Part shown: piece after piece, positions 4,872-53,285 of the stretch
How the letters are laid out: each line of letters opens with the position of its first letter
How positions within the stretch are numbered: the first letter of the stretch is position 1
Assembly (NCBI GenBank): GCA_040756875.1
Contig: JBFLYH010000001.1
Span: forward strand, 1,388,299-1,452,298
DNA from: a candidate division FCPU426 bacterium
GTDB lineage: Bacteria > Oederibacteriota > JAAXVQ01 > JAUVAV01
DNA: 64,000 nucleotides
Direction: 5' to 3'
Made by a program: the position numbers and the translations under genes
The notes under the pieces: generated by a model
The model's input: the letters and a program-made list of their open reading frames with translations, nothing else
Databases searched by the model: none
Told to the model about the DNA's origin: nothing

Positions 4872-6836
4872 TTACCAGTTGGTGGGCATGGCCTTGCGCG
4901 CCTTGTCCTTGTCCGCGCATTCGGCTTTCAAGGCCTGCAAGGTGGGGAAAAGCTTTTCCGCGGATGCAACCGTGGTGGCATAGTCTTCGCTGCGCAGCAG
5001 CAACTTGATCTTGCCGAGCTCCTGCTTCAGTTCCGCCACTTGCTTGGGAAAATAGCGTTCTCCGTTCAGCGTATCAATGTCCAGCATCAACTTGACGGCC
5101 CGGCCATAAGCGCCGCGGGCGCGCTTGCGCAACCGTTGAACACGCGCGTCCAACGGAGCGGTCAGGGTAGCCTTTTCGGGGGCAGGCGTCACGGCCGGGA
5201 CCGGCGCAGAATCCCGGGATTTTTCCGGCGCGGGCGCCGGCGGCGCTTTGACTTCTTCGGCTTCGGCTTTTTCCCTCCGGACGGCGCGGACCGCCAAACG
5301 CTCGGCTTCACGGCTAACCGCCTGGGAAATCGCCTGCACACGTTCGCTTTCCCCCACTGAAAGGTTTTCCTCGGCTAAGGCCAGTTGTTTCTGCAACGCC
5401 GAAAGTTCTTCGTCGAAATATTCCCGCACTCGCCGGTTTTTCCTGGCTGCCGAGAAGGCCGCCCGGGCGCGCTGCAAACTCGAACCGGCCTCGCGCAAGG
5501 CTGCACGCCGGGCCACCAGCGCAGCCTCCCGTTCCTTGCGTTCCTGCTGTTGCTTTTGTTGTTCGGACAACACCTCGAGTTTCTTCTGCACGGACTGGAG
5601 CAACAGGGAGGCCTGGCTGTGGCGGGGGTCCAAGGTCTGCGCCTTGCGGTATTCCGAAGCGGCACTAAGCAGGTTACCCTCCTTTTCGAATTCCAACCCC
5701 TGGTCGATATGAATGCGGATTTCAGCCTGGCGTTTGAGGGTCTCATTCAGCGCCGTGATTTTTTGGCGCAGGGTTTGGTCATCCGGAACCATTTCCGCGG
5801 CTTCTTCCCACGCCTGCAACGCCGCCTGGGCGTCGCCTTCGCGGCGGTAGTCCTCGCCCTCCTCGATCAAGCGGTCGGCCAGCGCGCGGGCGTCATCCTC
5901 GGCGCTTTGGGAAGCTCCAAACGTGAATTGCAGGTTCAACAGATGCGTGACTCCGGCCTCGCTGAATCCCCCCAGAGGAATGACGAGGGCGTATTCCACG
6001 CCCACGGACCACGCGGTTTGGGGCAGACGCAGGGTAAACCCTGCCGTGGCTTCGGAAAGCTCGCGGTCGCCCAGAGCCAGTCCCAAGCGGCTCGCGAAAA
6101 TGCCGCGAACCCACCAGGCCTCCCCGCCCAGGGCCAGGCGATAGTGTCCGGACTGCGTCAGGGCTTCGAAGCCGGCCAGATAATTTTCCTGCCTCCAGCC
6201 CGCACCGGCCCGCAACTGGAACGGGACGCGCGACTCGGCGCCGGACAACGAAAGGTTGGGCTGGTTCACGTTCGCCAACGACAAACCAGCGGTGATTTCG
6301 TCCGTCAGATACATCAGCCCGCCCACGTCCACACCCACGGCCAGGGCCGACGTCCCGCCGTCGAAGTAGGGGTTCGCGGCAGTTGCAGCGGAATCCAGAT
6401 AGCGCTGCTGCAGCAGTTTTAAAGCGATGCCGGCCATATAGCTTCCGGTTTCATCGAGCGCCAGGCCATATCCCAGGGCCCAAAGGTTTTCCTGATACAT
6501 ATCTTGTAAAGAGCGTTGAAACCACGAGGCGCCGATCGAACCGTAATCTTCCAGGGGTTGGATATACGATATCCTGCCCTCCGACAACACTCCGTCATTG
6601 AGTCCGGCCAGCAGACGCCCATAGCTGAGACCTGCCATCGGCGTCGGAATCTGCGCCATTCCCGCGGGGTTGGAAAAAAGCGCATCCGTGTCGTCAGCCA
6701 GGGCGCAGAACGCGCCAGCCATGCCCGCCGAACGGGCGCCGGGTTTTTCCAGCTCAAACCCCGCCTGCACGAGGCGCGGCCCGCAAAAAGCGGCCGTTCC
6801 GAACAGCAACAATGCCCAACCCCAGGAGGTTTTCAT
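4872..6836 (-). CDS. PorP/SprF- or PorV-like outer-membrane beta-barrel fused to a TPR/helical C-terminal region
   Basis: Signal peptide, GAR.AGM.GAF.A.ADD..A...NPAG, NVNQP, terminal THLLNLQFTF strand, then TPR-like helices (ALQAWEEA, AASEYRKAQTLDP). Confidence 0.72.
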   Translation of the reverse strand: MKTSWGWALLLFGTAAFCGPRLVQAGFELEKPGARSAGMAGAFCALADDTDALFSNPAGMAQIPTPMAGLSYGRLLAGLNDGVLSEGRISYIQPLEDYGSIGASWFQRSLQDMYQENLWALGYGLALDETGSYMAGIALKLLQQRYLDSAATAANPYFDGGTSALAVGVDVGGLMYLTDEITAGLSLANVNQPNLSLSGAESRVPFQLRAGAGWRQENYLAGFEALTQSGHYRLALGGEAWWVRGIFASRLGLALGDRELSEATAGFTLRLPQTAWSVGVEYALVIPLGGFSEAGVTHLLNLQFTFGASQSAEDDARALADRLIEEGEDYRREGDAQAALQAWEEAAEMVPDDQTLRQKITALNETLKRQAEIRIHIDQGLEFEKEGNLLSAASEYRKAQTLDPRHSQASLLLQSVQKKLEVLSEQQKQQQERKEREAALVARRAALREAGSSLQRARAAFSAARKNRRVREYFDEELSALQKQLALAEENLSVGESERVQAISQAVSREAERLAVRAVRREKAEAEEVKAPPAPAPEKSRDSAPVPAVTPAPEKATLTAPLDARVQRLRKRARGAYGRAVKLMLDIDTLNGERYFPKQVAELKQELGKIKLLLRSEDYATTVASAEKLFPTLQALKAECADKDKARKAMPTNW

Positions 6837-7744
6837 CGCGCCAGCACCACTGCGGCCCGGTAGGTTCGATTCCCGGCCTGAATGACCAAGACATATATTC
6901 CGGCCGGCAAAGCTTTGCCCGCATCATCCCGGCCGTCCCAGCGCACGGTATAGTCCGGGATTTGGCCGCGCACCGTGCCTTCCGCGACACGCCTGCCGTT
7001 GAGCGAATAGACTTTGGCGTGTATCTCTCCCGCCGAAAGCTCGGATTGGAATACCGCCGCCAGTTCCCGGTTCAGGCTTCCATCCGGAGTGAATGTGCGC
7101 GTTAGCCATCTGACATTTCCCAACAAACCGGAAAAAGCAACCGTCGGCGGCGAGACATACGGAACCCGGGTGGGACTGATGCTGGGCGTCGGCGAAATGG
7201 TGGGGGTGCGTGTAATCGTGAAAGTCGGCGTAACGGTGGCGGAAGGTGAAAAAGTCGGCGTGCGGCTGGGTGTGGGGCTGATGGTGCCGGTCGGGCTTTC
7301 CGTGGCCGTCTCGCTGATCGTGGGTGTAGCGGTCCGGGTGGCGCTCTCGGTGGGAGTAGTCGTGATGGAAAGCGTAGGGGAAATCGTCGGGGTTGGAGAC
7401 TCGGTCGCAGTGTCCGTGGACGTCGGCGATTCGGTCAAAGTCGGGCTCAAGGTGGGAGTGGCTGAAAGAGTGGCTGTCCCGGTGATCGTAAACGTGCCTG
7501 TCGGCGTGGGAGAATCGGTCAGCGTCGGCGTGACAGTCGCGGTGGGTGTATCCGTCGGCGTGGAAGTCAGCGTGACAGTCTCGGTCGGGGTCGGCGAGTC
7601 CGTGGGTGTGTCAGTAAAAGTCGGCGTGTCCACGGCCGCCGCATACAAATTCGAAGCCGAAAAAACCGCCAAAGCACACGCGACCATCACACTCAGCACA
7701 CACCCTAATCGCAACATAGCCCCTCGCGTGAAGTGTTTTCGCAA
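6833..7744 (-). CDS. Secreted Thr/Pro-rich (mucin-like) protein with FlgD-Ig / type-B-CTD-like C-terminal domain
   Basis: Signal peptide, ~160 aa TP/TS repeats, then FTPDG...YSLNGRRV...WDGRDDAGKALPAGIY. Stop overlaps the start of the PorP-like gene (ATGA). Start uncertain (TTG 7744 or ATG 7717). Confidence 0.75.
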   Translation of the reverse strand: MRKHFTRGAMLRLGCVLSVMVACALAVFSASNLYAAAVDTPTFTDTPTDSPTPTETVTLTSTPTDTPTATVTPTLTDSPTPTGTFTITGTATLSATPTLSPTLTESPTSTDTATESPTPTISPTLSITTTPTESATRTATPTISETATESPTGTISPTPSRTPTFSPSATVTPTFTITRTPTISPTPSISPTRVPYVSPPTVAFSGLLGNVRWLTRTFTPDGSLNRELAAVFQSELSAGEIHAKVYSLNGRRVAEGTVRGQIPDYTVRWDGRDDAGKALPAGIYVLVIQAGNRTYRAAVVLAR

Positions 7745-7814
7745 GTATTGATCTTACGAATTAACCTCTTGGATTTCAATGTTTTTTTAGACCGGACGCC
7801 AAGGGGAACCTTGC

Positions 7815-9056
7815 TTACTTCACCAGCGCAACCTTTTTCTTTTCGCTTCGGACAATGCCACCCTGCTGGTTGGAAATCCTGATCGTCAGCAGATAAATCC
7901 CGGGCGCGGCTTCCGGCGCATTCCAGACGCAGGTCAGCATCTGTCCACTGCCGCCATCCCGGGACTCCAGGATGTGCGCCACCCTTTCCCCGCACATATT
8001 GTAAATATCCACTGCCACTTGAACCTGCCCCTCGGCCGGATAGGCGATCACCACCCGGTTACGGGCCGGATTGGGATAGACGGTCGTTTCACTCAAACGC
8101 AGAAGCGGGGAGGGCGTGGCGGTCATCGTCGCCGTCACGGTGGGAGTCCCCGTATCCGCAGGGGTCGGCGTCACGGTGAATGAAGGCGTGACCGTGGGCG
8201 TCGGTGATAGGGTCGGAGTGTCGGTCCAGGTGCCGGTGGCAGTGAGCGTCGGCGTCATCGTCAGCGTCGGCGAAGCTGTCGCGGTAAATGTCACGGTCAG
8301 GGTCGGGGTCGCGGTCGGCGTGGCAGTGGAAGTTTCAGTAGCCGTAGAAGTCGGCGTAACGGTCTGGGTTGGAGTCGAAGTCAGGGTGACGGTCGGGGTG
8401 AGGGTCGGCGTGGGCGTGGGAGGCGGCATGCGCACCGTGACGTAATCCACGACAAAGTAGGTGCTGCCAAAACCCTCGGCCGTCAGTTGCACGCGGAAAG
8501 TGTGCCCCGGGCCGATCCACCCCATGATCGAGGCATAATTAAGGATGAATGTCCCGGTTGTGCTTGTGCTGGAGACAAGGTCCCGATACTGCCAGGCCCC
8601 GTTGATTTCCTGGATGCCAACCTTCCATGTCATGGATGGCGAGAGCGAGGTCACGCGGATCTCAATGTGCGTGAAAACACTGGTGTTTGGAGAAAGGAGC
8701 GGAGAAAGCACCTTGCCCCAGGTGCTGTCCGCTGTCCGCGTCACGGCCGCTTGCGAAACCAGGCAGGAGTAGGAAATATGCGCATTGAACAGCGGATCGT
8801 CGCTTTCATCCTGCCAGCCTGCAGGCTGTGCACCCGGCGGTCCTGCATCAAAGTCGTCCCGCCAGTATTCATAAGTCGGCGTATTGGTCGGAGTGGGCGT
8901 GCTGGTGGAGGTGCAGGTGTGAGTTGATGTCGCCGTCAGGGTAGGTGTGTCTGTCGGGGAGGCGGCCCAAAGCCCCTCTCCTTGGGCCAACAAAACCAGC
9001 CACAGGCCGGCCGGTATCATAAGGGTGTGCTGCATTACCCTTTTCATGGGCATCAA
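7815..9056 (-). CDS. Secreted protein: one copy of the repeated ~150-aa module + TP linkers + T9SS type-A-like CTD
   Basis: Signal peptide; WRDDF..QPAGW...WGKVLSP...VDYV module; C-terminal YPNP...GERVA...PGIY...KKVALVK. Confidence 0.8.
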   Translation of the reverse strand: MMPMKRVMQHTLMIPAGLWLVLLAQGEGLWAASPTDTPTLTATSTHTCTSTSTPTPTNTPTYEYWRDDFDAGPPGAQPAGWQDESDDPLFNAHISYSCLVSQAAVTRTADSTWGKVLSPLLSPNTSVFTHIEIRVTSLSPSMTWKVGIQEINGAWQYRDLVSSTSTTGTFILNYASIMGWIGPGHTFRVQLTAEGFGSTYFVVDYVTVRMPPPTPTPTLTPTVTLTSTPTQTVTPTSTATETSTATPTATPTLTVTFTATASPTLTMTPTLTATGTWTDTPTLSPTPTVTPSFTVTPTPADTGTPTVTATMTATPSPLLRLSETTVYPNPARNRVVIAYPAEGQVQVAVDIYNMCGERVAHILESRDGGSGQMLTCVWNAPEAAPGIYLLTIRISNQQGGIVRSEKKKVALVK

Positions 9057-9240: not shown

Positions 9241-12200
9241 TTATCGGATAATAGCGACCTTTTTAGTTTCAGAAAAAACGATTCTTCCGTTCGCGTCAAG
9301 TATCCTGATCCGAGCTAAATACACCCCTGGCGCCTGGTCCGAACAATTCCAGAGCAGGGTCATGGTCTGCCCCCGGCCAGCCTGTTGATTCTCGATCAAA
9401 TGCGCCACGCGCTCTCCTGCCAACTGGTAAATATCAATGGTGACCGTATAATTGCCGCTGCGGGTATAAGCGAAGGTCGTCCGGTTACGGGCCGGGTTGG
9501 GATAGACCATGACCCGGCCTGCCTCCAGCCAGGGCGTAGGCGAAGGCGTGGCTGTGTTCAGCGTGCCGGCACCGATCGCGTTGTCAGGCGTGGGGCTGAT
9601 GGTGAAGGTCGGAGTGGGCGTGGGCGGCAAGGCATAGATTCTCACTGAATCAGCCAGTAAATAACTGCCCGGGCTTCCTTCCAGCGTCAGTTGGATAAAA
9701 AAACTCTGGCTGCCGCTGCGACCCATGACCGTGGGAATGTCGAACACAAAACTTCCGGTCTGGGAGGTCAACGGCATGAGCGTCCAGAAGGACCACGCCC
9801 CGCCGTTTTCCTGGATGCCCGCGTTCCACACTGCGCCGGGCGAGAGGCCGAGCACCCGGAGTTCCAGCCGGTTATACTGGGAAACATTGCACGTTAAAGC
9901 CGGAGAAAGCACCTTGCCCCAGGTGTCGTCCGCCGTGCGGGTAAGCGCGGCGCAGGACGGCGAGGCAGAGTAGGCCAGATGACAATCAAAGGCCGGGTTC
10001 TCGCTTTCATCGCTCCACCCCGGCGGTTGCACCCAAAACGTCCCGTTGAAGTCCTCCAGCCAGAAGGTGTCGGCCGGCGTCGGACTCGGGGTCGGCCGGT
10101 TGCCGTTCACCACGCTGACGTTTTCGACCAGCACCCAGGAGTTGTCCAACGAAAACTGGCTTTCCACACCGCCGACCGCCACGGTGAAATACTGGAGCCC
10201 ACTTTGCAGGGAGAGCGGCAGGTAGTGGCGTAGATTGAATTTGAAAGCCCCCTTCACCGGGGAATCATAGTGCATGCGGACCGAATACCCGCTGGGAGTG
10301 TTGCTTAAAAAGGCGTACCATTTTCCATAGAGGTCTTTGATATCGATGCGCAGGTCAGCCTCCTGGTCCATGTCAACGCTGAACGGGTAAATTTTTTCGA
10401 TCGAGCCGTACCCGTAAGGCTCAGCCCCGCGATACAGGTCATAGATCCTGACCCCATTCTCCAGCGGCGCAAACTGGGCGCGATTATAAACCGGCGTCCA
10501 CTGGGCGGTGACGCCCGGCAGCTGGGTGTTGAGCATGATCTGCTCGCCCCCCGCAGCCGGAGGCACCACGGTCCAGGGGTCGGACGGCCGGGGCACTGGT
10601 CCCGGGTTTTTCAGGTTGCTGCCTGTGTAAGCAGTGGCGTTCACCTCGGCCCCGGACCGCAGCAGTCCGGCCGCCGTGAACAGCCCCATCAAATGCGGCG
10701 TCCCGTCTTGTTCGGTGTCGTTGAGCAGCCACACCAGCCCGCCCGCGAGGTCGGTCTGGTAGATGCTGTCCCAGACATGGGTGAAATAGTCGCTCACTTC
10801 CGCCGCCGGCGGGCTGAGGTTGAAATCCATCCCAAACTCTTCAAACAGTATGGGTTTAACCTGGCCTAATGATTGCATCAGGGTTCTGGCTTGCATGGCC
10901 GCGCCGATATAAGCGTCCCTGCGGTCGTAATAGTGAATGGTCACCACATCCACAGGCGCCAGATCCAGGCTGCGCAGGCTGTCCGGCCAGGCCGTAGCCG
11001 CTATCACCAAATGATTGGGATCCAGGCTCTGCATATACCCCGCCAGATCCTGGTGCCAATCCAAGGCGTACGGATGAGCTGTCAAATCACCGTTAACCAG
11101 CGCCACATAGACATCCAACTCGTTGGTGACGCCCCACCCTAAAATGCGGTCGTCGTCCCGGAACCGCTCCAGAATGAGGCGCACATGGTTCTTTTGGTCC
11201 GTTCGGGTCGCGGGAGAATAATTCCGCGTATAGGGGAAAAACGTGAATTCCACTTTCAACCCCGCTTTGTCCGCAAAGTACAGGAATTGTTCCATGCGGG
11301 CCAACATCTCGGGCTTGACCGCGGCCCCGCCGAATTCATCATAATGGATGAACGTGCGGATGGTGTTGAATCCCAGGCCGGTCGCGCGGCTCAGCTCGGT
11401 TTCGATCATGGCTTGATCCCATTCCACCCACATCTTTTGCCAGCCGTGCGCCGAGGGATAGTAATTGGCCCCTTTGATTTTAACGATCGTTCCCTGCAAC
11501 TCCAATTGTTCGGGGTCCGCGCCGCTGACCCGGACGAAATCACCGGCCGCCGCCTGGCGGCGGTTCCCGAATACCCGCACACTCTCCACCGTGATTTGTT
11601 CGCCCGCCGCCCCTTCCACGGTAATTTGCACCACGATATCCTTTTCGCCGGACCAGCCGATGATCTGGGCGTAATCAAACTCGAAAACCCCGTCCGTGGT
11701 CTGACTGGCGCATAAATCCCAGTAATTTGAAGTCCCATTTTCCAAAATGCCCACTTTCCACGAAACCGCGGAAGAAAAGCTGCTGACATTGATCTCCAGG
11801 CGGTTATAGGCGTTGACATCACAGCGAATGGGCGAGGACAACACCTTGCCCCAGACATCCTCCGCAGTGCGCACGATTGCAGCCGACGAAACGCCGCTGT
11901 AGTTTATCTCGGCGTTGAAAGTCGCATCATCCGTTTCATCGAACCAATTGGAGGGCTGGAGGCCTGCGGTGCCGGTAAAATCCTCATGCCATATGTCCGC
12001 CGTCAGGGCGCTGGGCGTGGGGGTACGGGTCGGCGTTGAAGTCGGCCCGTCGGGCGTGAAGCTTGGGGTGGGCGTGGGGCTGGCCGTCGGAGTGGGTGGA
12101 GCCGAACGCACGCTCACATAATCCGCCACCAGATACTTCCCCACACCTCCCTCCACGGTCAATTGAACGTAAAAATCCTTCGTGCCGCTCCATCCCATGG

Positions 12201-12822: not shown

Positions 12823-12851
12823 TTAGACTAGCTCATTTAGCTAATATTTCC
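12823..12851 (-). promoter_or_regulatory. Candidate ECF sigma promoter (shared motif)
   Basis: GGAAAT-N17-GTCTAA upstream of 9241..12741. Confidence 0.6.
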
Positions 12852-15464: not shown

Positions 15465-15494
15465 GTAGACGCAAATGTCTCACATTTTATTACA
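15465..15494 (-). promoter_or_regulatory. Candidate ECF sigma promoter (shared motif)
   Basis: TGTAAT-N18-GTCTAC upstream of 12918..15401. Confidence 0.6.
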
Positions 15495-25295: not shown

Positions 25296-25324
25296 TTAGA
25301 CTCAGGCAAAACGTTTTTATAACA
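25296..25324 (-). promoter_or_regulatory. Candidate ECF sigma promoter (shared motif)
   Basis: TGTTAT-N17-GTCTAA upstream of 15614..25105. Confidence 0.62.
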
Positions 25325-26390: not shown

Positions 26391-26420
26391 TTAGACTGAA
26401 GATGGCTGGTAAATATTACA
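26391..26420 (-). promoter_or_regulatory. Candidate ECF sigma promoter (shared motif)
   Basis: TGTAAT-N18-GTCTAA upstream of the PorV-like gene. Confidence 0.62.
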
Positions 26421-35126: not shown

Positions 35127-35201
35127 GGAAGTACCCCCCGAATGATGTTTCCGTAACACCTGTATATATAATGAATCGCAATGGATATTGTTAACCAGAG
35201 G

Positions 35202-35230
35202 TTAGACTAGGCAGGACGCGGTTTATAACA
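35202..35230 (-). promoter_or_regulatory. Candidate ECF sigma promoter (shared motif)
   Basis: TGTTAT-N17-GTCTAA. TGTTATAAA-N14-GTCTAAC is shared exactly with the 25296 site. Confidence 0.62.
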
Positions 35231-39810: not shown

Positions 39811-39894
39811 TCCAGCCTCCCCACCAAACGGCCTCAGGCAGGATACGCCCAAAGCCTTGTATATATCGGGATTATATCATAGCGCAATATATAG

Positions 39895-39924
39895 TTAGAC
39901 TTGCAAAATACCCAAATCGTTTCA
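39895..39924 (-). promoter_or_regulatory. Candidate ECF sigma promoter (shared motif)
   Basis: TGAAAC-N18-GTCTAA upstream of the scaffold gene. A TGATATAAT extended -10 lies at 39871-39879. Confidence 0.58.
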
Positions 39925-44487: not shown

Positions 44488-44574
44488 TTTCCCCCTCCGG
44501 CGATTGGATTTCTCCAGTGAAACCATCATCCGTCCGCTTGCGTTTCACCGTTCCTTTCAGCGGACGGATCAGAA

Positions 44575-47457
44575 TCATTTGTATCCATATACTCTTACAT
44601 AATCCAGCAGGATAAACTGCCCGGGCTCCCCCTCCATGTTGATCTGCACGATGAATTCCCTGACCCCGCGCCAGCCGGTCTTGGCCCGTAGGTCCGCCGA
44701 ATAGGTCAGGGCGTCGGCCGAGCCGGCGACAAGGTCCCAGTAATTGTCCGTGCCCGGCTCGCGCAGGGCGATGTTCCAGCGCGTGCCCGGCGAGTTGCGG
44801 ACCACTTTGGCTTCCACGTAGTTGTAGCGGTCGACATCGAGGCGGATCAGGCGGCTGCGGATGTTCCCCCAGGTGCTCTCCGCGGTGCGCGTGACCGCGG
44901 CGAAGCCGGGTTCGCACGCATACGCGATCTCGGCATTGAGGTCCGCCTGGTCGGTTTCATCCTGCCATTGCGAGGGTTGCCGGCCCGGCGTGCCGTTGAA
45001 GTCGTCCTGCCATCCGTTCATGCAGGGCGGCGTGACGGTGGGCGTGCCGGTCGGGCGCTGCCGCGGTTCGGCCAGGCCGGGCACAAAGGCGCCCATCCGG
45101 TTGTTCACGATGACGGCCCGGGAGGAAAACCCGGCGGTTGTGATGAACATCATCCAATATCCCGGTCCGAGATCAGGGGGAAACCTCAGGCGCAGCGTGT
45201 CCTTGGTCTGGGACCACGCCAGGGGATAAAGCCGGGAAGTCAGGTCCAGCATTTGCCCGGAAGAACTGTACACGCCCATGCTGCCGCTGTCCAGGGCGAG
45301 GAGCCAAGCCCGGGGATAATTCACAGCCGAACTGCCCCACCCCTGGCCGCAGCCTGCCCCCCAGGGGCCGCGAAATCCCTGCCCGATCACGATGCCGATG
45401 GCCCCGGGTTTGGCCACATCGGACCAGGTCTTGATCCGCGGGCCTGGCCCGGATTCAGGCGGCAGGGCTTCGCCGCGATAAGAACAGGCTTCCAGGCTGG
45501 CCAGATATTCCAGCCGGTCCTCGCCGCCGGTCAGCAGCACGCGGCCGTCCGCCAGCAGCGTGGCCGTATGCTCCCGGCGCTGGCCCGCCAGCGGGGCTGA
45601 AAGGTGGAAATGGTCCGTGGCCGGATGGTACCATTCTGTTTCCGCGGCGCCGCCCGCCAGCAGGACGTCGCCGCCGGGCAGCAGGGTGGCGGTGTGCCCG
45701 CTGCGGGCCCGGTTGAGGCGGCCGGCGGAAACGAACCGGTTGGTCGCGGGATCATAGCGTTCCGCCCCGGCTAAAAGGCTTTCCTGATTGGCGCCGCCGG
45801 CGATCAAAACCTGGCCGTTGGCCAGGCGTGTGGCCGTGTGCATGGCTCTGGGTTCGGCCATGGCGCCGGCGGGCGAAAAACGCCGGGTCAGCGGATCGTA
45901 CAATTCGGCGCTGGCCAGGTAACGCGCGCCGTTGTACCCTCCGGCGATCAGCACTTTGCCATTGGCCAGCAAGGTTGCGGAATGCTTTTCCCTGGGTTCA
46001 GCCATGCGGCCCGCGGAGATGAAGCTTCTGCTTTCAGGATCATAGAGCTCGGCGCTTGCGAGATGCTTCTGGTTGAATCCCCCGGCCAGCAGCACCTGGC
46101 CGTTGTTCAGGAGTGTGGCCGTTTGCTTTTCCCGCCGGGCCAGCATCCTGCCCGTCATTTCGAAGCGCCGCGTGTCCGGATGGTAAAGCTCGGCGCTGTC
46201 ATAATACTCGCCGTCGCCGTAGCCGCCGGCCAGCAGCACCTCGCCTCCGGGCAGGAGGGTCGCGGAATGGCAGTGCCGCGGAACCAGCATCATGCCCGCC
46301 GCCAGGATGGCATTGGCCTGGGGGGCGAAGCGTTCGCACTGGGCGAGATAACGTCCGTTATAACCGCCCGCGATCAGAACCTGGCCGTCCGGCAGCAGGG
46401 TGGCGGTGTGGGTGTGACGGGAAAGGCTCATGGATCCCAGCGCGGTCCAGGCGCCGGTTCCGGGCAGGTAGAGTTCCGGCCGCAGCCCGCTGCCGCCGCC
46501 GAAGACGAAGACTTTGCCGTCTGGCAGCAGCGTGGCGCTGTGGAAGGCGCGGGCCGAAGCCATGGGCGCCTGCGTCAGCCAGCGGTTGCCGGCAGGATCA
46601 AACCTCCATGCCTGAGGCCCGGACAGCAGCATCACCGTGCCGTCAGGCAGCAGCGTGGCGGTCAAACCGGGCCGGAGGGCGTCCAGCTGGCCCACAACCT
46701 GCGCGCGCCGCTCCTGGGGGAAATACCGCTCCACTGCCGCGGGCCCGCCGCCGGCCAGCAAGACGCTTCCGTCCGCCAGCAGCACGGCCGCCGGGTCGAT
46801 GCGGTCGCCCGCGAGCCGGCCGGCGGACTGAAAGTCATTGCGCCCGATGCGGTAGATTTCCACGGCCGGGTTCCCGCCGCCGGCCACCAGCACCTGCCGC
46901 TCGTCCAACAGGACGGCCGCATGCCCGGCGCGAGCGAATTGAAGGTTTCCGGCTTTTCGGAATTTTCCGTTTCGCGGGTCGTACAGTTCGGCCGCCTGCG
47001 GGCCGCCGCCGGCCAGCAACACCTGGCCGGTCGGCAGCAGCGTGGCCGTGTGCCCTGCCCGCGCAAAATGCATGCTGCCCGTGGAGGTAAACTCGCCGGT
47101 TGCCGGCTGGTAAATCTCAGCCGAGGATTGCGGCTTTCCGAACGCGTCCTCGCCGCCCGCGATCAGAACCGTGCCGTCGGGCAGCAGCGTGGCCGTGTGC
47201 CGGGCCCGCCGGTTGGTCATGTATCCGGCGACGCGGAAAGTCCCGTTTTGCGGATCGAACAGCCAGGCGCCGTAGCCCGGCCGGCCCTGGCTGAAGCCTC
47301 CGGTCAGCAGCACTTTTCCGTTGGGAAGCAGGGTCGCGGCATGCCGCGCAGTGTCCGTGGTCGCTTCCACCGGATAGCACCACTCCCCGGCAGCGGCTGA
47401 TTTGAGGTAGGCGAATATCAACAGGGCGGATAGCAGGATGCGAGCGGTAGGTCTCAT
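44575..47457 (-). CDS. Exported Kelch-repeat (double beta-propeller) protein ending in one repeated module, no CTD
   Basis: Signal peptide; about 14 R..HTATLL.DG.VL.AGG...AELY.P repeats; final WQDDF..QPSQW...LDYVRV module. Confidence 0.85.
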   Translation of the reverse strand: MRPTARILLSALLIFAYLKSAAAGEWCYPVEATTDTARHAATLLPNGKVLLTGGFSQGRPGYGAWLFDPQNGTFRVAGYMTNRRARHTATLLPDGTVLIAGGEDAFGKPQSSAEIYQPATGEFTSTGSMHFARAGHTATLLPTGQVLLAGGGPQAAELYDPRNGKFRKAGNLQFARAGHAAVLLDERQVLVAGGGNPAVEIYRIGRNDFQSAGRLAGDRIDPAAVLLADGSVLLAGGGPAAVERYFPQERRAQVVGQLDALRPGLTATLLPDGTVMLLSGPQAWRFDPAGNRWLTQAPMASARAFHSATLLPDGKVFVFGGGSGLRPELYLPGTGAWTALGSMSLSRHTHTATLLPDGQVLIAGGYNGRYLAQCERFAPQANAILAAGMMLVPRHCHSATLLPGGEVLLAGGYGDGEYYDSAELYHPDTRRFEMTGRMLARREKQTATLLNNGQVLLAGGFNQKHLASAELYDPESRSFISAGRMAEPREKHSATLLANGKVLIAGGYNGARYLASAELYDPLTRRFSPAGAMAEPRAMHTATRLANGQVLIAGGANQESLLAGAERYDPATNRFVSAGRLNRARSGHTATLLPGGDVLLAGGAAETEWYHPATDHFHLSAPLAGQRREHTATLLADGRVLLTGGEDRLEYLASLEACSYRGEALPPESGPGPRIKTWSDVAKPGAIGIVIGQGFRGPWGAGCGQGWGSSAVNYPRAWLLALDSGSMGVYSSSGQMLDLTSRLYPLAWSQTKDTLRLRFPPDLGPGYWMMFITTAGFSSRAVIVNNRMGAFVPGLAEPRQRPTGTPTVTPPCMNGWQDDFNGTPGRQPSQWQDETDQADLNAEIAYACEPGFAAVTRTAESTWGNIRSRLIRLDVDRYNYVEAKVVRNSPGTRWNIALREPGTDNYWDLVAGSADALTYSADLRAKTGWRGVREFIVQINMEGEPGQFILLDYVRVYGYK

Positions 47458-47635: not shown

Positions 47636-48253
47636 TCAGGCGGTCACCAGGCCCACGGCATCTTCCCCCAGCCACGGGCGGCTGATTTTCGACAGTAAAT
47701 GTTTGCCCCGCAAGAGGCGCACGCCCAGGATTGCAGCCGGAATGTTCAAACGCCTGGCTGCTTCGCTGTAAGAGTGGCGCTTCCAATAAATAAGGTAGAT
47801 CACGCGCCGGTATTTCTTCGGCAGCGTCTTCAAGGCCTGGCGCAGGCCGCTGATCTGCTGTTCCAGCACCAGCTGCTCCTCCAGGTTGTTTCCCGGTGCG
47901 GTCAAAACCAGGTTCTCGGGCAGACCGGCCTGAGGCAGGCGCCGCCGCTTGGTCAGATGTGTCTTGCAGGTGTTGGCCGTTATGCGGAACAACCAGGTCC
48001 ACAGCCCCGATTGGCCGCGAAAATTAAGAATCTTTTTCTCGCCCAAGACTTTGGAAAAAACTTCCTGTGCCGCGTCCCGGGCATCGTGCAGATCGCGGAA
48101 ATAACGCAGGCAGGTATTCAGCACTTTGCGATAGTATCGGTCTGCCAGCTGATCCGCCGCGCTTGCCACGTTATTACGGATTAGCTGGATGAGCTCCATA
48201 TCCGTTAAATCGATCGTATCTTTCTTTTCAGTACAAATAACAGGCATGGGCAT
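47636..48253 (-). CDS. ECF-type RNA polymerase sigma-70 factor
   Basis: Region 2 DARDAAQEVF...TWLFRITAN; region 4 LP...R.V..L....SYSEAARRLNIP; 205 aa. Confidence 0.9.
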   Translation of the reverse strand: MPMPVICTEKKDTIDLTDMELIQLIRNNVASAADQLADRYYRKVLNTCLRYFRDLHDARDAAQEVFSKVLGEKKILNFRGQSGLWTWLFRITANTCKTHLTKRRRLPQAGLPENLVLTAPGNNLEEQLVLEQQISGLRQALKTLPKKYRRVIYLIYWKRHSYSEAARRLNIPAAILGVRLLRGKHLLSKISRPWLGEDAVGLVTA

Positions 48254-48283: not shown

Positions 48284-48299
48284 AGCAAACGCCATGCCA
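48284..48299 (-). promoter_or_regulatory. sigma54 (-24/-12) promoter of the ECF sigma gene
   Basis: Minus strand TGGCATGGCGTTTGCT = GG-N10-GC, matching TGGCA-N6-TTGCW, 30 bp upstream of the start codon. Confidence 0.75.
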
Positions 48300-48430: not shown

Positions 48431-48489
48431 CCGCACTGGGCAGGCACCTGGATATTTTAGGAGGGATTTAAATCATTCCGGCGGACAAC

Positions 48490-49860
48490 TCAGGCTTGGT
48501 TTTTAGGAGGGCGTTGGATGCCATAGCGACGCAGGAGTTGGTTGAGCTGCTCCCGCGCCAAGCCCATGGCCCGGGCTGCTTCGGAAACATTGCCCTGGTG
48601 TTTTTGCAGGTAACGGCCGAGATAGTCGCGATGGAAATCCCGCAGCAATGCCTCCTTGGCCTGGCGATAGGGCTGTTCCCGTTTTTCCGCTGATCCGGAA
48701 TTCGCGGGGCGCCCGGCTGCCTGCATCTGAAAATCCCGCCAATGCAAGACGCCGTCCGGGCATTGCTGGGCCGCGGCTTCCGTGCGCTTGCGCAGTTCGC
48801 GCACATTGCCTTCCCAGGCCAGGCTGCCCAGCCGGACGTACACCTCCGGTTCCACCCGGGTGACGGGCTGTTTGAGGCGCGGGTTCAACTCGGCGAGAAA
48901 ATGTTCGACCAAGAGCGGTATGTCCTCGGGATGTTCGCGCAAGGGCGGCAACTGAATCACCTGCCCCTTGAGCCGCTGGTATAAATCCTGGCGGAACTGG
49001 CCGGCTGACAAGAGGCTGCCCAACGGTTGGTTAGTCGCCGCCACCACCTGCACATCCACGCGTACCGGCTGCCGCCCGCCGACCGGATGGAACTCCCGCC
49101 GCTCCAGAAAGGTCAGGAATTTTTTCTGCTGGTCCGGGGGCAATTCCCCGATTTCGTTCAAAAACAGCACTCCGCCGTGAGCCTGCGTCAACCGGCCGGC
49201 CCGGCTCGCTTCCGCGCTGGTGAACGATCCCTTCTCATGGCCGAAGAGCTCGCTCTCGAACAGCGCCGGCGGGATATTGGTGCAATCAAGCATGACAAAG
49301 GGGCCGTCACGACGCGGCCCCAGGCGGTGGATCATGGCCGCGGCCAGGTCTTTGCCCGTGCCGGTCTCGCCCAGAATCAGCGTATCCAGACCTTTTTGCG
49401 CGCTTTGAAAAACTTGCATGGTCGCGTCGAGCATGGCCTGCGATTTGCCCACGATCCTGGCCTCCCATACGGCCGTCGGCGAAGGCCGGGGCGCGGCAAC
49501 GGTCAGCCGCTTCAGTTTGGCCGCCAATTCCGCCAGGTCGATCGGCTTGGTGATGAAATCCGCGGCGCCGGCCTGCATGGCCTCCAGCAACAGCCCTGAA
49601 TCCGGCTGCCCGGTGATCACCAGCACCGGCGGCGAGTTGTCGCCCAGGTCCCTCCGCACGCCGCGCAAAACCTCGAGGCCTCCCGGGCCTTGCCCCAGAA
49701 AAACGTCCAGCAGTAACGCTTCCGGCGGCTGGCTGCGGACCGCCGCCAGCGCGGTTTCCGCATCCTGGGCGGTTTGCACCTCGAACCCCTCCCAGCGCAG
49801 CCGTTCCACCAGCAGGTCCAGGATATCGGGGTTGTCGTCCACAATCAGGATCTTGGCCAT
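48490..49860 (-). CDS. NtrC-family sigma54-interacting response regulator (REC-AAA+-Fis HTH)
   Basis: REC (IVDD, LLDV, KP), Walker A GETGTGKD, ESELFGHEKGSFTSA, FRQDLYQRL, WEGNVREL, and HTH GNVSEAARAMGL. Confidence 0.92.
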   Translation of the reverse strand: MAKILIVDDNPDILDLLVERLRWEGFEVQTAQDAETALAAVRSQPPEALLLDVFLGQGPGGLEVLRGVRRDLGDNSPPVLVITGQPDSGLLLEAMQAGAADFITKPIDLAELAAKLKRLTVAAPRPSPTAVWEARIVGKSQAMLDATMQVFQSAQKGLDTLILGETGTGKDLAAAMIHRLGPRRDGPFVMLDCTNIPPALFESELFGHEKGSFTSAEASRAGRLTQAHGGVLFLNEIGELPPDQQKKFLTFLERREFHPVGGRQPVRVDVQVVAATNQPLGSLLSAGQFRQDLYQRLKGQVIQLPPLREHPEDIPLLVEHFLAELNPRLKQPVTRVEPEVYVRLGSLAWEGNVRELRKRTEAAAQQCPDGVLHWRDFQMQAAGRPANSGSAEKREQPYRQAKEALLRDFHRDYLGRYLQKHQGNVSEAARAMGLAREQLNQLLRRYGIQRPPKNQA

Positions 49861-49875
49861 GTCAATTCCCCCGAT

Positions 49876-51240
49876 TCATTCGCCGGCCGGAAGGGTCAGC
49901 GAAAAGGTCGTGCCCTGCCCGGGCGCGCTGTCTGTCACGCGCAGTCCGCCGCCCATGACCTGGGCCAGTTGGCGGGCAATGGCTAGCCCCAAGCCCGTGC
50001 CCTTGACTCCGGGCTGCAGGCGGACAAACGGCTCGAAAATGCGTTCCCATTCCGGTTCCGGTATCCCCGGCCCCTGGTCCTGCACCTGCAGCGTCACCGA
50101 ACGCTCCGAGCATGCGGCCTGCAAGCGGACCGGCGTGCCGGCCGGCGAAAACTTCAGGGCATTGCGGACCAGATTGAAAAGCACGCGCTTCAACTGGGCC
50201 GGATCCGCCAGAACCCGGCAGCCGGCCGGCGAGAAAACGCTCAGGACTTGGCGCTTGGCGGCCGCTTCCTCCTCGAGGGCATCGCAGACCGCCTCCAGCA
50301 GCGGCCCCAGTTCGACCACCTCCGCGTGGATCGGCATCCGCCCCTGGATGAGGCGTTCATGATCGCCGAGGTCGCCGATCAGGCCGACCAGGGCTTCGGC
50401 GTTCTGCTGCGTGACGGCCAGGTTTTTTTCCAGATTCTCCGGCGGCTGCCCCTGGCGCAGCTTGAACAACTGGTTGTCCAGTTTGCCATGGATGACCGTC
50501 AGGTAGGCATTGGCATCGTGGGTGATGGCCGAAAGCATGGCGGATTTCTGGTTTTGCTCCTGGCGCAGGCGTTCCTGGGTCTGGTTTAAGACCTGGTTTT
50601 TTTCCAGAACTTCGCGGTGAACGGCCGCAAGCTGGCGGTAGAGCCGGTTGAGCAGGAGCAGCGCCGCTCCCAGGGCGGCCAGGACCACCCCGCTCAGCCA
50701 GGTGGCCAGCAGGATATTGTTCTTCTGGGCGATGAAGGCTTCCAGGGAAAAAACCACGGCCAGCAACGTCGGCGGCCCCGTCTGGCCCGCCGGAGGCGGG
50801 GTCGAAAAACCAAAGTACAGGTGCCTCGGCAATCTCAGGCCCTCGGTGTTCTCCACCGCCGAATCCAACAGCCCCGGGGCCAGCCCTGCGGACTGTCCCG
50901 CCTCAAGAATACGCTTGCCGTTCGACCAGTAGGCCACGTACTGGATGTTGGGAATCCGCGACAGCAGCATGACGAAATTGAACATGTTTTCCGATTGGCC
51001 GCGGAAAATGGAATGCATGGAGCTTTCGTTGATGCTGCGGGCCAGGGTTTGCAGGGAATGCAGCTGGCTGCGCTCCATGGCGCGCAGGTTGAGCAGCACC
51101 GCGGCCATCAAAATTCCGGTGCCGGCCAAGAGGCCCAAGCCGAGCGCCCACAGCACCGGGTTCCCCTTCACCGTACGGATGGCCGGCGCGGTTTCCGCGC
51201 GCGGGGGCGTCTCACTTGAGGAGGGTTCGGACGTAGGCAT
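49876..51240 (-). CDS. Membrane sensor histidine kinase
   Basis: Two TM helices, H-box ITHDA, N-box NLVRNALKF, DQGPGI, F-box, GTGLGLAI. Confidence 0.92.
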   Translation of the reverse strand: MPTSEPSSSETPPRAETAPAIRTVKGNPVLWALGLGLLAGTGILMAAVLLNLRAMERSQLHSLQTLARSINESSMHSIFRGQSENMFNFVMLLSRIPNIQYVAYWSNGKRILEAGQSAGLAPGLLDSAVENTEGLRLPRHLYFGFSTPPPAGQTGPPTLLAVVFSLEAFIAQKNNILLATWLSGVVLAALGAALLLLNRLYRQLAAVHREVLEKNQVLNQTQERLRQEQNQKSAMLSAITHDANAYLTVIHGKLDNQLFKLRQGQPPENLEKNLAVTQQNAEALVGLIGDLGDHERLIQGRMPIHAEVVELGPLLEAVCDALEEEAAAKRQVLSVFSPAGCRVLADPAQLKRVLFNLVRNALKFSPAGTPVRLQAACSERSVTLQVQDQGPGIPEPEWERIFEPFVRLQPGVKGTGLGLAIARQLAQVMGGGLRVTDSAPGQGTTFSLTLPAGE

Positions 51241-51559
51241 ACGTCGAATACGTCAATCCCAGGCCGGCCGCCAGGATGTAGAACATGGACCAGGTTTTGT
51301 ACTGGTACATCCGCAGCAGCAGGGTGCGGGACTCGTTTTGCAGGTATAGGGGGGACAGGGTGTGGTATACGTGATAATGGTTGTAGGCGCACAGTACCAG
51401 CGCGACCGCCCCCAAAGCCGACCCGATCCAGTAGGGACGCTGTTTGAGGGCCAGGTTGATCTTGCGCACGGCCAGGGCGTGGTAGACCAACGCCGCGGCA
51501 AAGAGCAGGAAGCTCACTTCGTAGAGAAAAAAACTGGCCCGGTACAGAAGATCAAGCAT
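51212..51559 (-). CDS. Small 3-TM membrane protein
   Basis: 115 aa with three hydrophobic helices; overlaps the kinase start. Confidence 0.7.
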   Translation of the reverse strand: MLDLLYRASFFLYEVSFLLFAAALVYHALAVRKINLALKQRPYWIGSALGAVALVLCAYNHYHVYHTLSPLYLQNESRTLLLRMYQYKTWSMFYILAAGLGLTYSTYAYVRTLLK

Positions 51560-51560
51560 G

Positions 51561-51917
51561 TCAGTCGTGCCTCCGGGACAGGTAGGTCAGAACCCGCCAG
51601 AAACGGTAGCATCCCCACCAGCACAGTCCGGCCGACCACACCAGCAGCGCGTAGCCGATCCATTGTTCCACCGGGCCCATGTTCTCGTGTTGGAGCGAGG
51701 CCATGGCCTGCAACAGCAGGTAGGCGAATACTCCGGCCGGCGCGATGAAATAAAACGGCCAGTGGGTCACCAGCTGGTACGCCTGCTCAAACCGCCGGGC
51801 CACGAAGCCCATGAGCCCGAACCCGATCCACAAAACCGCCCCGGCGAGGATGGCGGTGTAGCTGGTGACCGTGACGAACCAGAAATGTTCAAACGGCAGT
51901 AGCGTGGGTCCGGGCAT
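51561..51917 (-). CDS. Small 3-TM membrane protein
   Basis: 118 aa with three hydrophobic helices; tight operon spacing. Confidence 0.7.
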   Translation of the reverse strand: MPGPTLLPFEHFWFVTVTSYTAILAGAVLWIGFGLMGFVARRFEQAYQLVTHWPFYFIAPAGVFAYLLLQAMASLQHENMGPVEQWIGYALLVWSAGLCWWGCYRFWRVLTYLSRRHD

Positions 51918-51923
51918 GCGGGT

Positions 51924-53285
51924 CTATTTTTTCTCCAAACTCATTTCGATTTCCCGCGCCATGAGTTCGGCGGCTTCCGTGCCCAGAATCAGGCGCGCGG
52001 ATTGAAAAAGGAGATCACTGATGTTTTTCAACTGGGCGGGATTCAGGCCGCGCCCCGTGGTTTCCACCTTCTTTTTTTCCCGCTCCAGCAGCGCCCGGCC
52101 CAGGAAACCCATGTGTTTGTTGGCGATGAATTCCAACGCGGCCAATCCCTGCGGCGGCTGGGGCTCGGCAACGGCAGCCACGGGTTCCGCAGGGCCCGCG
52201 CCTTCGCCGGGCAGTTCGTTGAGCCAGGCCATGTTCTCCTGATAGGCAGAGCTGGGCGGCGGAACCTTTCCCCAGTCCGCCTGAATGTCCAGAATCAGAT
52301 CATCGGCCTTGAAGCTGAGGATTTCCTCCTCCTCGCTTTCCTGGAGCGGAGCGGCCGCCGGAGCCGCCACCGGAACCACCGGGGCGGGGGCGGGTTTTTC
52401 CTCGGCTGCTGCCGGGACCGCGGGCTGGCTGGGTCCGAGCACGGTCTGAGCGTCCACCGGCGGCGGCAGGACGCCTTCGATAATGTCCATCAGCAGTTCG
52501 GGCACGCCGAGCCAGGACAACACCTCCGCCTGACCGGTCACCAACTGCCTCTCCGCGAAGGTGTAGCCGCCCAGGAAGGCACCTTCATGAAACAAGGCCA
52601 GCGCCACTTCCAGGTCCGAGCCCTTGCGCGTGTAGGTCTGCCGGTTCAGCGCCTCCTCCAAGTCCTGGGGGCGGATGGCACCGGTTTTGACCAGCGCGTC
52701 CCCCAGGCGCAGGGCGCCCTCGCCGGAAAGCTGCAGCCGGATGGCGTCGCGCAGCTGGTCGGCGTTGATTTTATTCAGCTTGAGCAGGAGGTTACCCAAC
52801 CGGGTGTTGTTGCGGATGCGGTAAAAGCGGAGGGTGCCGGTGAACCGCTTGCGTGCGAAGGTGGCAAACAGCTTGGGCAGGTCCAGAAAAGTGGTTTCGA
52901 GCTCGCGGTGGGCCGGTGCCCGGGAGGCCAGGGCGCCGAGCGCCTCCAATACCCCCGGGTCCAGCTCCCCCACGTTGAGGACCGTTTCCCGTTCGCTGGC
53001 GCCGGTGCTTAAAAAATGGCGAATGACCTCCGGCGGGGACAATTGCAGGTCTTCGGTGCCTTCGTAAAAGCCGTTGCGGATTTGGCCGCGGTGAAACAGG
53101 AGCAATCCGTGCTCGTGCGGCGCCAGCAACTCGACGTAGCCGCTGAACGCCGGGACCAGAAGCTCCTCAAGCAACCCGGCGAAACGCGAACTGCGGTAAT
53201 TGAGTTTTTCGTATTTGAGTTTACCGTTCGGGATGAATAATTGGGGCCACAAGGCGTCGACTCCCATGAGGATTGAAAGGATCAT
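51924..53285 (-). CDS. Cytoplasmic protein with tandem MshEN c-di-GMP-binding motifs and DUF4388/PATAN-like segments
   Basis: RLGNLLLKLNKINADQLRDAIRLQ and RLGDALVKTGAIRPQDLEEALNRQ; FSGYV..L/FTGTL segments. Confidence 0.7.
   Translation of the reverse strand: MILSILMGVDALWPQLFIPNGKLKYEKLNYRSSRFAGLLEELLVPAFSGYVELLAPHEHGLLLFHRGQIRNGFYEGTEDLQLSPPEVIRHFLSTGASERETVLNVGELDPGVLEALGALASRAPAHRELETTFLDLPKLFATFARKRFTGTLRFYRIRNNTRLGNLLLKLNKINADQLRDAIRLQLSGEGALRLGDALVKTGAIRPQDLEEALNRQTYTRKGSDLEVALALFHEGAFLGGYTFAERQLVTGQAEVLSWLGVPELLMDIIEGVLPPPVDAQTVLGPSQPAVPAAAEEKPAPAPVVPVAAPAAAPLQESEEEEILSFKADDLILDIQADWGKVPPPSSAYQENMAWLNELPGEGAGPAEPVAAVAEPQPPQGLAALEFIANKHMGFLGRALLEREKKKVETTGRGLNPAQLKNISDLLFQSARLILGTEAAELMAREIEMSLEKK

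Follow-up and report, generated by a model that had tools for sequence, protein, structure and literature searches.

What a large island of exported proteins does in a bacterium outside the Bacteroidota, and how much of the system it belongs to is encoded within it, are the questions raised by a window of 64,000 nucleotides (the whole stretch of DNA that was analysed) from candidate division FCPU426 (assembly GCA_040756875.1, contig JBFLYH010000001.1). From 4872 to 53285 every gene of this window is on the minus strand, in agreement with the original prediction of about 48 kb of co-oriented genes, and the orientation of all long open reading frames (ORFs) is the same over 4872-56373 in the window ORF list. 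The genes of this island encode exported modular proteins, most of which end in a C-terminal domain (CTD) like those of type IX secretion system (T9SS) cargo, together with outer membrane barrels and a set of regulatory proteins. Our interpretation is that the locus is an island of regulated cargo genes belonging to a type IX-like secretion pathway, in a candidate phylum outside the Bacteroidota; to this, with its mechanism and cascade included, we give somewhat better than even credence. Promoter motifs and gene order can be read directly from the DNA; activation, sigma specificity, secretion, binding and substrate we infer.

According to this interpretation, the cargos would cross the outer membrane via SprA, and the barrels of the island would bind the CTDs of these cargos, which they would either transport or keep attached at the surface, in a manner akin to PorQ with PorZ or to the PorP/SprF shuttles with type B cargos. 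Once at the surface the cargos would form a coat that captures glycan: they would bind a beta-linked glycan, which one or two of them would also cleave. Concerning regulation, a kinase would phosphorylate an NtrC-type activator, the activator would switch on a sigma-54 promoter located before the gene of an extracytoplasmic function (ECF) sigma factor, and the ECF sigma would read the GTCTAA-type promoters of seven separately terminated cargo/barrel transcription units.

The host genome (here G000) comprises 3.22 Mb in 7 contigs with a completeness score of 100%, and its phylum is represented by 99 species genomes in the collection. The genes are not scattered in the two relatives examined: the island is syntenic in a genome of the same genus (G001) and in one of another genus (G003), with 48-88% identity between cargo orthologues and 58-81% between barrels. 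In both relatives the MshEN protein stands at the upstream edge of the island (77% identity in G001 and 52% in G003).

Exported cargo, barrels and the translocon

Nine exported modular proteins, eight of them with a CTD, had been predicted, and this count was confirmed. Their genes are the following:

6833-7744, minus strand: exported Pro/Thr-repeat protein of 303 aa with a weak FlgD_ig-like CTD (FlgD_ig, 27.4 bits)
7815-9056, minus strand: cargo of 413 aa with a signal peptide, one module and a type A CTD
9241-12741, minus strand: cargo of 1166 aa with two modules, a TIM barrel like that of glycoside hydrolase (GH) family 5 (residues ~395-888), one further module (three in all) and a CTD
12918-15401, minus strand: cargo of 827 aa with an FG-GAP propeller, two modules and a CTD
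15614-25105, minus strand: cargo of 3163 aa with an N-terminal domain of ~200 aa, a CBM4_9-like region, three modules, LVIVD and FG-GAP propellers, Pro/Thr repeats and a CTD
26505-35159, minus strand: cargo of 2884 aa with the same N-terminal domain as the 3163-aa cargo, seven modules and a CTD
36265-39852, minus strand: cargo of 1195 aa with six tandem modules and a CTD
40000-44529, minus strand: cargo of 1509 aa with four modules, a GH5-like TIM barrel (residues 714-1209), one further module (five in all) and a CTD
44575-47457, minus strand: exported Kelch-propeller protein of 960 aa with one terminal module and without a CTD

A hydrophobic N-terminal stretch resembling a signal peptide is present in all nine proteins (judged by eye), and the repeats of the 303-aa protein match residues 2560-2880 of the 3163-aa cargo. 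Seven proteins matched the Pfam family Por_Secre_tail (E 1.1e-6 to 8.9e-5), three of them reaching its 27-bit cut-off, while the NCBIfam model of the type A sorting domain (TIGR04183) scored above its cut-off of 23 bits in six of the eight proteins claimed to have a CTD; of the remaining two, 6833-7744 gave 18.8 bits and 26505-35159 was not listed. A CTD profile trained on the genome itself recovered the eight window CTDs, each at the very C-terminus, with E-values of 1.8e-25 to 4.9e-31 for the seven large cargos and 1.2e-5 for 6833-7744. The seven strong CTDs can be aligned and have in common the motifs YPNP, GERV, APGIY and KKVAIIK. Genome-wide, the same profile produced 102 matches, 98 of which end at most five residues from the stop codon and 101 of which were counted as C-terminal, and the seven strong window CTDs form one subfamily with five others encoded elsewhere in the genome, two of these on module-bearing proteins. 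At the level of sequence, the eight island proteins, which are putatively exported by Sec, are shown to end in type A CTDs belonging to one subfamily. Outside the island, the C-terminal part of the PorU model matches a 7689-aa open frame (G000:C1:1011196-1018230) at two internal places, where CTD-like domains inside a giant protein are predicted.

The barrels of the island, two clear and one weak, are encoded by three genes interleaved with those of the cargos:

25397-26347, minus strand: PorV/PorQ-family barrel of 316 aa with its own GTCTAA promoter (PorV_fam, 164.1 bits; cut-off 90 bits)
35299-36243, minus strand: PorV/PorQ-family barrel of 314 aa, 21 nt behind the 1195-aa cargo gene (PorV_fam, 150.8 bits)
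4872-6836, minus strand: barrel-TPR fusion of 654 aa, with the barrel at residues ~31-306 and a C-terminal TPR region (TPR_2, E 1e-5)

Three PorV/PorP-like barrels had been anticipated, of which two are clear and the third is weak; the likeness to PorP was not sustained, as the two clear barrels belong to the PorV/PorQ family and gave no PorP/SprF match in the family-model scan. The two clear barrels are 59% identical to each other, and the fusion protein, whose start overlaps the stop of the CTD gene upstream by 4 nt, shares 26% identity with 25397-26347. Many PorV-family barrels of the genome are part of ORFs of 420-790 aa and so have long additional stretches, comparable to the TPR tail of 4872-6836; a kinase-NtrC-ECF cassette comes immediately after barrel-TPR fusions at C2:864166-866349 and in G003.

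The pairing of barrels with cargo extends far beyond the window. The genome contains 42 ORFs of the PorV/PorQ family, 33 of them above the cut-off; none reaches the cut-off of the PorV equivalog (best score 63.9 bits against 250). Based on the own CTD profile, 31 of the 42 are located on the same strand at most 600 bp downstream of a CTD gene, whereas 2000 trials of random placement yielded 0.45 such barrels on average and never more than 4; the stricter TIGR04183 list still places 26 of 42 behind a CTD gene. Dedicated barrels, which had been proposed for this locus, are therefore a genome-wide rule rather than a property of the island. Distances between CTDs and between their barrels are correlated (Mantel r 0.377, equalled in none of 5000 permutations; 27 pairs with full-length barrel matches), and the nearest neighbour is the same for CTD and barrel in 10 of the 27 pairs. 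This correlation indicates that the pairs have been copied as units, which is not by itself proof of binding. Within the window CTD subfamily (12 members genome-wide) only the two window barrels are paired with a member; consequently these two clear barrels may, and in our interpretation probably do, serve every member.

A structural model of the barrel 25397-26347 in complex with the CTD of the cargo encoded upstream gave an ipSAE of 0.81, the best control giving 0.00; among solved complexes 116 of 157 attain this mark, among mismatched pairs 2 of 215. The contacts agreed in at least 96%, the partner had a predicted local distance difference test value (pLDDT) of at least 82, and the modelled interface uses conserved CTD motifs. 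PorV belongs to the FadL-like barrel fold, and the barrels show weak Toluene_X and UPF0164 matches, as would be expected if they were FadL-type channels for the uptake of breakdown products and not partners of the CTDs. We find this hardly credible, considering that the PorV/PorQ family scores are far above the cut-off, that barrels are systematically placed behind CTD genes and diverge together with the CTDs, and that conserved CTD motifs form the modelled interface.

The translocon itself is encoded elsewhere. A Sov/SprA homologue of 2111 aa (C1:863629-869964; TIGR04189, 224.2 bits, cut-off 200) was found ~520 kb from the island, and SprA-like proteins of ~2000 aa are encoded by 58 of the 60 high-quality phylum genomes. 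Considering this distance together with the ~101 CTD proteins and 42 PorV-family barrels of the genome, the locus is not self-contained, contrary to what had been proposed. Profile searches of the 100%-complete own genome gave no match to GldK, GldM or GldN and only an E of 0.089 for GldL, and none of the four models matched in G001 or G003, whereas in a Bacteroidales metagenome-assembled genome used as positive control (G041) gldK-L-M-N were recovered as adjacent genes with 545, 133, 388 and 139 bits. GldM was likewise absent from G011 and G014 and from all 99 genomes of the phylum, and no GldK scored above the cut-off in 60 phylum genomes, 26 of which had partial matches of FGE-sulfatase type (at most 76 bits); these phylum-wide searches covered GldM and GldK, those for GldL and GldN the own genome, G001 and G003, and the models are centred on Bacteroidota, so that very divergent analogues could escape them. 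Of the searches that had been advised for SprA, PorU and GldKLMN, the one for SprA succeeded. On this evidence, translocon, signal and barrels appear to be present in the lineage, and ring and motor to be missing. The sampled genomes of the phylum would likewise retain translocon and signal, and in them, too, PorV-family barrels appear to be multiplied beside cargo genes.

That these genes are the known cargo of an ordinary member of the Bacteroidota was rejected, in view of the absence of GldM from the 99 species genomes and of the silence of the Gld models in relatives but not in the Bacteroidales control. A wider reading is put forward with reserve, as a tentative possibility: the whole phylum would possess a motor-less relative of the T9SS in which SprA and CTD have been kept and sorting is performed by dozens of co-inherited PorV/PorQ barrels dedicated to their cargos, the island being one cascade-controlled regulon for a glycan-capturing coat. 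If the motor-less reading is true, the lineage would offer a natural minimal system to learn what energises and sorts SprA transport and how barrel-CTD specificity is encoded. The island is of interest mainly for the genome-wide and phylum-wide context that it exposes.

Several observations weigh against this picture of secretion. A PorU sortase is not clearly recognizable: of a 1188-aa protein, the C25 domain alone is matched by the PorU model, with 84.3 bits against a cut-off of 420. The third barrel, 4872-6836, scores below the PorV_fam cut-off (57.8 bits), and a neighbouring barrel is lacking for five of the eight cargos. The Mantel correlation can come from co-duplication alone. PorV/PorQ-CTD complexes have already been solved, so the pass of the modelled complex may only show likeness to them, its score reflecting the memory of the model.

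What is known of the T9SS comes from Bacteroidota, in which a single PorV handles every type A cargo and PorLM/PorKN are regarded as core components. The island proteins resemble the cargo of Porphyromonas gingivalis and Flavobacterium johnsoniae in having a signal peptide and a type A CTD that contains YPNP as well as Lys-rich terminal motifs, and the genome has in common with these organisms a Sov/SprA homologue above cut-off and PorV/PorQ-family barrels; it differs from them in that GldK/L/M/N (PorK/L/M/N) were not detected in this genome, nor GldM and GldK across the phylum, as well as in the missing PorV equivalog and the weak PorU match. The T9SS is placed in the FCB superphylum by reviews (PMC11205867) and is called Bacteroidetes-specific by others (PMC7463736), and all type A CTDs of F. 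johnsoniae are described as recognised by a single PorV (PMC12618676). For the same organism, type B CTD substrates with cognate PorP/SprF-like shuttles are also described (PMC12618676, PMC9143113), and the linkage of cargo genes to their own barrel genes is shared with the present genome. Orphan type B cargos may share a shuttle, and the five cargos without a barrel may do likewise; unlike those pairs, the tails found here are of type A and the barrels of the PorV/PorQ family. Titles and abstract openings, a weak form of evidence, contained no report of PorV-family paralogs with type A cargo, or of SprA without PorKLMN, outside Bacteroidota. In the present genome, type A tails go together with multiplied PorV/PorQ-family barrels, and PorKLMN is undetectable by profile.

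The shared module and predicted glycan targeting

The novel module that had been predicted to be shared by these proteins was recovered as a unit of ~150 aa, delimited by all-against-all BLAST and an iterated profile, with 28 copies in eight of the nine exported proteins. The whole genome contains 37 copies in 14 ORFs, so that three quarters of them lie in the island. The module has no Pfam family (best E 0.0075, with CBM_6 at 0.067, each in one of the 28 copies), and its profile gave a best E of 0.06 against the PDB. An AlphaFold2 model based on the 28-copy alignment is a confident beta-sandwich (pLDDT 93.5, predicted TM-score 0.89), for which Foldseek ranked families 22 and 61 of the carbohydrate-binding modules (CBMs) first, with E-values of 2-5e-4 (CBM22, 2.3e-4) and TM ~0.5. 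An exhaustive VIA structure search gave Z 13.3 to a xanthanase domain and Z 12.6-11.4 to a porphyran-binding CBM, CBM29, CBM4, CBM27, CBM22 and CBM86; overall, the matches to CBMs and the xanthanase range over Z 10-13.3, with an rmsd of 2.7-3.6 Å over 124-143 residues, and the jelly rolls of MAM, reelin and ephrin-receptor domains rank shortly after the CBMs. The lack of a sequence match in Pfam and PDB, together with these fold matches, assigns the module to a CBM-type fold outside any known CBM family, an assignment which, coming from a model, expresses a likeness of fold only. In common with CBM4, CBM22, CBM27, CBM29 and CBM61, it has a jelly-roll fold and occurs in tandem arrays beside GH domains; it differs from the curated CBM families in having no sequence membership, carbohydrate binding being predicted from the fold alone.

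The module was found in one order only. In a survey of 41 genomes (G000 and 40 relatives), it was detected in 7 out of 10 further members of the family of G000 and in the four genomes of the sister family, and in none of 26 genomes from 12 other families of the phylum. In a collection of 5.8 billion proteins, nine carriers were found among the best 8000 candidates by word sharing, and scanning a genome collection with a single module protein produced two loci, one in a relative of the same genus. The other locus, in a Bacteroidales metagenome-assembled genome, was rejected as a module carrier, its match being a chance match to the CTD. In the sister family, G014 encodes 83 module copies, many of them on contig C2 at 7-99 kb, the same island being far more expanded there.

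Catalytic-type domains are fewer. The central 496 aa of the 1509-aa cargo are 43.5% identical to the corresponding part of the 1166-aa cargo, and direct Pfam scans of these window domains gave nothing significant (GH2_C, E 0.0047). The sequence of the 1509-aa central domain matched an endo-beta-mannanase in the PDB (E 1.5e-5) and was placed in Cellulase/GH5 clusters of the Atlas (0.94). An exhaustive HMMER search with the GH5-like domain retrieved 667 homologues at E <= 1e-3, and 20 of 25 homologues scanned carry PF00150; a separate homologue search at near lengths gave one match. In the alignment the acid/base and nucleophile Glu (E151, E244) are invariant and the Arg, His and Trp positions of GH5 are present, and the alignment profile matched GH5 mannanases in the PDB (7bob at E 1.4e-32, and weaker ones) followed by GH2 enzymes. 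The 1166-aa cargo keeps the NE acid/base, HxY and EE nucleophile motifs, and NCBI gives its G003 orthologue (P0153), which carries PF00150 and PF26410, the name "cellulase family glycosylhydrolase". The features expected of GH5, namely a (beta/alpha)8 barrel, an Asn-Glu acid/base and a Glu nucleophile, are thus recognizable by sequence and catalysis is predicted, and the two cargos are shown, as far as alignments can show it, to carry a putative divergent GH5 barrel. The ~200-aa N-terminal domain of the 3163-aa and 2884-aa giants is of beta/alpha type with weak GH42/GH35 matches (PDB profile E 0.06; Atlas 0.83); its AlphaFold2 model (pLDDT 52.2) was too poor for a fold search, and a GH-A nature of this domain is a lead only.

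Taken together, the CBM-like fold of the module and the GH5-like domains of two cargos support the glycan targeting that had been proposed, which would rest far more on binding-type modules than on enzymes. On the other side stand the fact that the CBM-like fold also occurs in non-glycan binders, for example MAM and ephrin-receptor domains, and the condition of the 1509-aa cargo, whose GH5-like domain has SE in place of NE and no HxY Tyr, although the nucleophile Glu is kept. Because of these two changes, both of which are also found in the G001 orthologue, this domain may be inactive.

The same features would fit a structural or adhesive surface coat, with adhesins and cell-cell contact in place of glycan degradation; modules and propellers would then serve adhesion, and the GH5-like domains would be binding relics. 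We consider such a coat unlikely, while granting that a catalytic-type domain is found in only two of the nine proteins, one with altered motifs, that FG-GAP, LVIVD and Kelch propellers and Pro/Thr linkers predominate, and that MAM and ephrin-receptor domains have the same jelly-roll fold. The island is flanked by parts related to cyclic di-GMP (c-di-GMP), namely MshEN (51924-53285) and HD-GYP (1537-2820), and such parts usually go together with the control of adhesion and biofilms. Against a purely adhesive function, the best fold matches of the module are overwhelmingly CBMs, the 1166-aa cargo keeps every GH5 hallmark seen in the alignment, and the N-termini of two giants give weak GH42/GH35 matches; besides, glycan adhesion and glycan cleavage are compatible.

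The island resembles polysaccharide utilisation loci and cellulosomes in being a cluster of co-regulated, surface-exposed proteins that would bind or cleave glycans. It had nevertheless been described as neither of the two, which agrees with our scans of 30 window proteins, where TonB-dependent receptor/SusC, SusD, cohesin and dockerin families were not found. The island supplies an unclassified CBM-fold module in 28 copies and, for enzyme discovery, a divergent GH5 clade.

Regulatory genes and promoters

Family models corroborated the ECF sigma, the NtrC-like activator, the kinase and the MshEN protein that had been announced for the island. The first three, with the promoter found before the sigma gene, are the following:

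47636-48253, minus strand: ECF-type sigma factor of 205 aa (Sigma70_r2 and r4_2; TIGR02937, 79.5 bits)
48284-48299, minus strand: sigma-54-type -24/-12 promoter, TGGCAT-N5-TTGCT, with one mismatch to the consensus
48490-49860, minus strand: NtrC-type response regulator with a REC domain, a sigma-54 AAA+ activator domain (Sigma54_activat, E 1.4e-57) and a Fis helix-turn-helix
49876-51240, minus strand: membrane histidine kinase of 454 aa (HATPase_c, E 2.3e-27)

The -24/-12 promoter is placed ~30 nt before the ECF start codon, just ahead of an AGGAG ribosome-binding site. With up to two mismatches, the sigma-54 consensus has 29 matches over the window where 35 are expected and thus shows no enrichment, so only the intergenic site counts, and 48284-48299 is the only intergenic one of three matches with at most one mismatch; sites of its quality number 51 genome-wide on both strands. 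A sigma-54-type site precedes the five ECF genes examined (that of the window, those of two other cassettes, and those of G001 and G003), one of them, in another G000 cassette, reading TTGA for TTGC. The genome encodes rpoN (453.5 bits) and three kinase-NtrC-ECF cassettes, all of which abut module-bearing genes, and no anti-sigma-like ORF adjoining the ECF sigma gene was seen in the ORF list. The components of an HrpL-type cascade, a -24/-12 promoter, an adjacent enhancer-binding protein and rpoN, are all recognizable.

In Pseudomonas syringae, HrpR/S and sigma-54 are reported to lead to HrpL, an ECF sigma, and through it to the type III secretion regulon (PMC5263251). The likeness lies in an enhancer-binding protein that, with sigma-54, would drive an ECF gene without an adjacent anti-sigma, the sigma in turn driving secretion substrates; unlike HrpR/S-HrpL, the secretion system and phylum are other ones, the activator has a receiver domain and a kinase, and the ECF step is putative. 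A looser parallel is the PorY-PorX-SigP cascade of P. gingivalis, which is reported to regulate T9SS genes (PMC4800418). It also combines a kinase, a response regulator and an ECF sigma over T9SS-related genes, and it differs in that the regulator found here is an NtrC-type sigma-54 activator on a promoter and the targets would be cargo and not machinery. The island would supply a compact sigma-54 to ECF regulatory design outside Proteobacteria.

Seven cargo/barrel genes are preceded by a terminator-like hairpin and then by a GTCTAA element (GTCTAC once), located 48-196 nt before the start codons of the longest ORFs:

39895-39900, minus strand: -10-like GTCTAA element, in front of the gene of the 1195-aa cargo and with TGTGAAAC upstream
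35202-35207, minus strand: like site
26391-26396, minus strand: like site
25296-25301, minus strand: like site
15465-15470, minus strand: like site, reading GTCTAC
12823-12828, minus strand: like site
7787-7792, minus strand: like site

In five of the seven, TGT(G/T/A)A(A/T)A or a similar A-rich element stands 15-19 nt upstream of GTCTAA, and GTCTAA with its upstream element is kept before orthologues in G001 (four sites) and G003 (two sites) with differing spacers. Plain GTCTAA in promoter position occurs 41 times in the genome, six of them in the window, which represents 2% of the genome. Many of the sites outside the window have GCATGAAA as a differing upstream element. A second promoter-like class, GCATGAAA(A), ~14 nt and GTCTAA, was noted before roughly a dozen genes (for example C1:111003, C1:564927, C1:1351300, C2:196238 and C2:1065778). 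GTCTAA may be a -10 element common to a family of ECF sigmas that differ in -35 specificity.

Some of these data disagree with control of the cargo by the island sigma. Outside the window only 7 of 35 GTCTAA sites precede CTD, barrel or module genes (baseline, 136 of 2319 genes), the Kelch gene has no GTCTAA site, and G001 keeps the GTCTAA promoters while its nearest sigma is only 37% identical and encoded elsewhere in the island. These facts would also fit a situation in which kinase, activator, ECF sigma and MshEN are unrelated neighbours and another GTCTAA-reading sigma drives cargo genome-wide: 35 of the 41 sites lie outside the window, most of them before genes without a CTD, G001 has no orthologous sigma at the equivalent place, and the position of the cassette differs between genomes. 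We judge this quite improbable. The three cassettes of the genome abut module-bearing genes, and the best sigma orthologues (52% identity in G006 and 51% in G014) are also beside module genes. The islands of G001 and G003 each hold an ECF-NtrC pair, with a kinase additionally in G003. Against a private regulon, in turn, G001 lacks the Kelch-sigma-activator-kinase block at this place, and the pair in its island is only 37-40% identical to that of the window. The composite promoter, with its TGT(T/A/G)A(A/T)A upstream element, is found six times in the genome, five of them in the window, and twice in the reversed genome, a pattern derived from the same window sites on which it was counted. The cascade claimed for the island is plausible: as far as the ECF sigma gene it appears well founded, and the step from there to the cargo promoters is one that we infer.

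Genes flanking the island

The remaining genes of the island edges and of the neighbouring sequence are the following:

15-1535, minus strand: sCache-HAMP adenylate/guanylate cyclase, at the downstream flank of the island
1537-2820, minus strand: sCache-HAMP HD-GYP-type phosphodiesterase (c-di-GMP phosphodiesterase model, 164 bits)
3086-4729, plus strand: TolB/PD40 propeller, lipoprotein-like, with a PT repeat and an OmpA-like C-terminus
51212-51917, minus strand: two small hydrophobic proteins of 115 and 118 aa with no family match
51924-53285, minus strand: DUF4388 protein with an MshE-type c-di-GMP-binding motif (MshEN; NF053729, 41.3 bits, cut-off 38)
53326-56373, minus strand: DEAH helicase of 1015 aa with an MrfA Zn-binding domain (TIGR03817, 714.6 bits, cut-off 874)
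57896-58288, minus strand: desulfoferrodoxin
58357-60210, plus strand: CTD cargo of 617 aa with a right-handed beta-helix, outside the island

The cyclase and the HD-GYP protein at one edge and the MshEN protein at the other hint at control of the island by cyclic nucleotides. The HD-GYP protein has a 94% identical counterpart at the equivalent position of G001. The TolB/PD40 gene, the sole plus-strand gene adjoining the island, is also kept in G001 (74%), and the first of the two small hydrophobic proteins is kept beside the MshEN gene in G003. The helicase gene is directly upstream of the MshEN gene, an adjacency repeated in G003; TIGR03817, below whose cut-off it scores, is a "helicase/secretion neighborhood" model. 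The CTD of the beta-helix cargo belongs to a subfamily different from that of the island CTDs, with at best 41% identity to other CTDs. Finally, desulfoferrodoxin and the sigma-54 regulators suggest an anaerobic lifestyle of the host.

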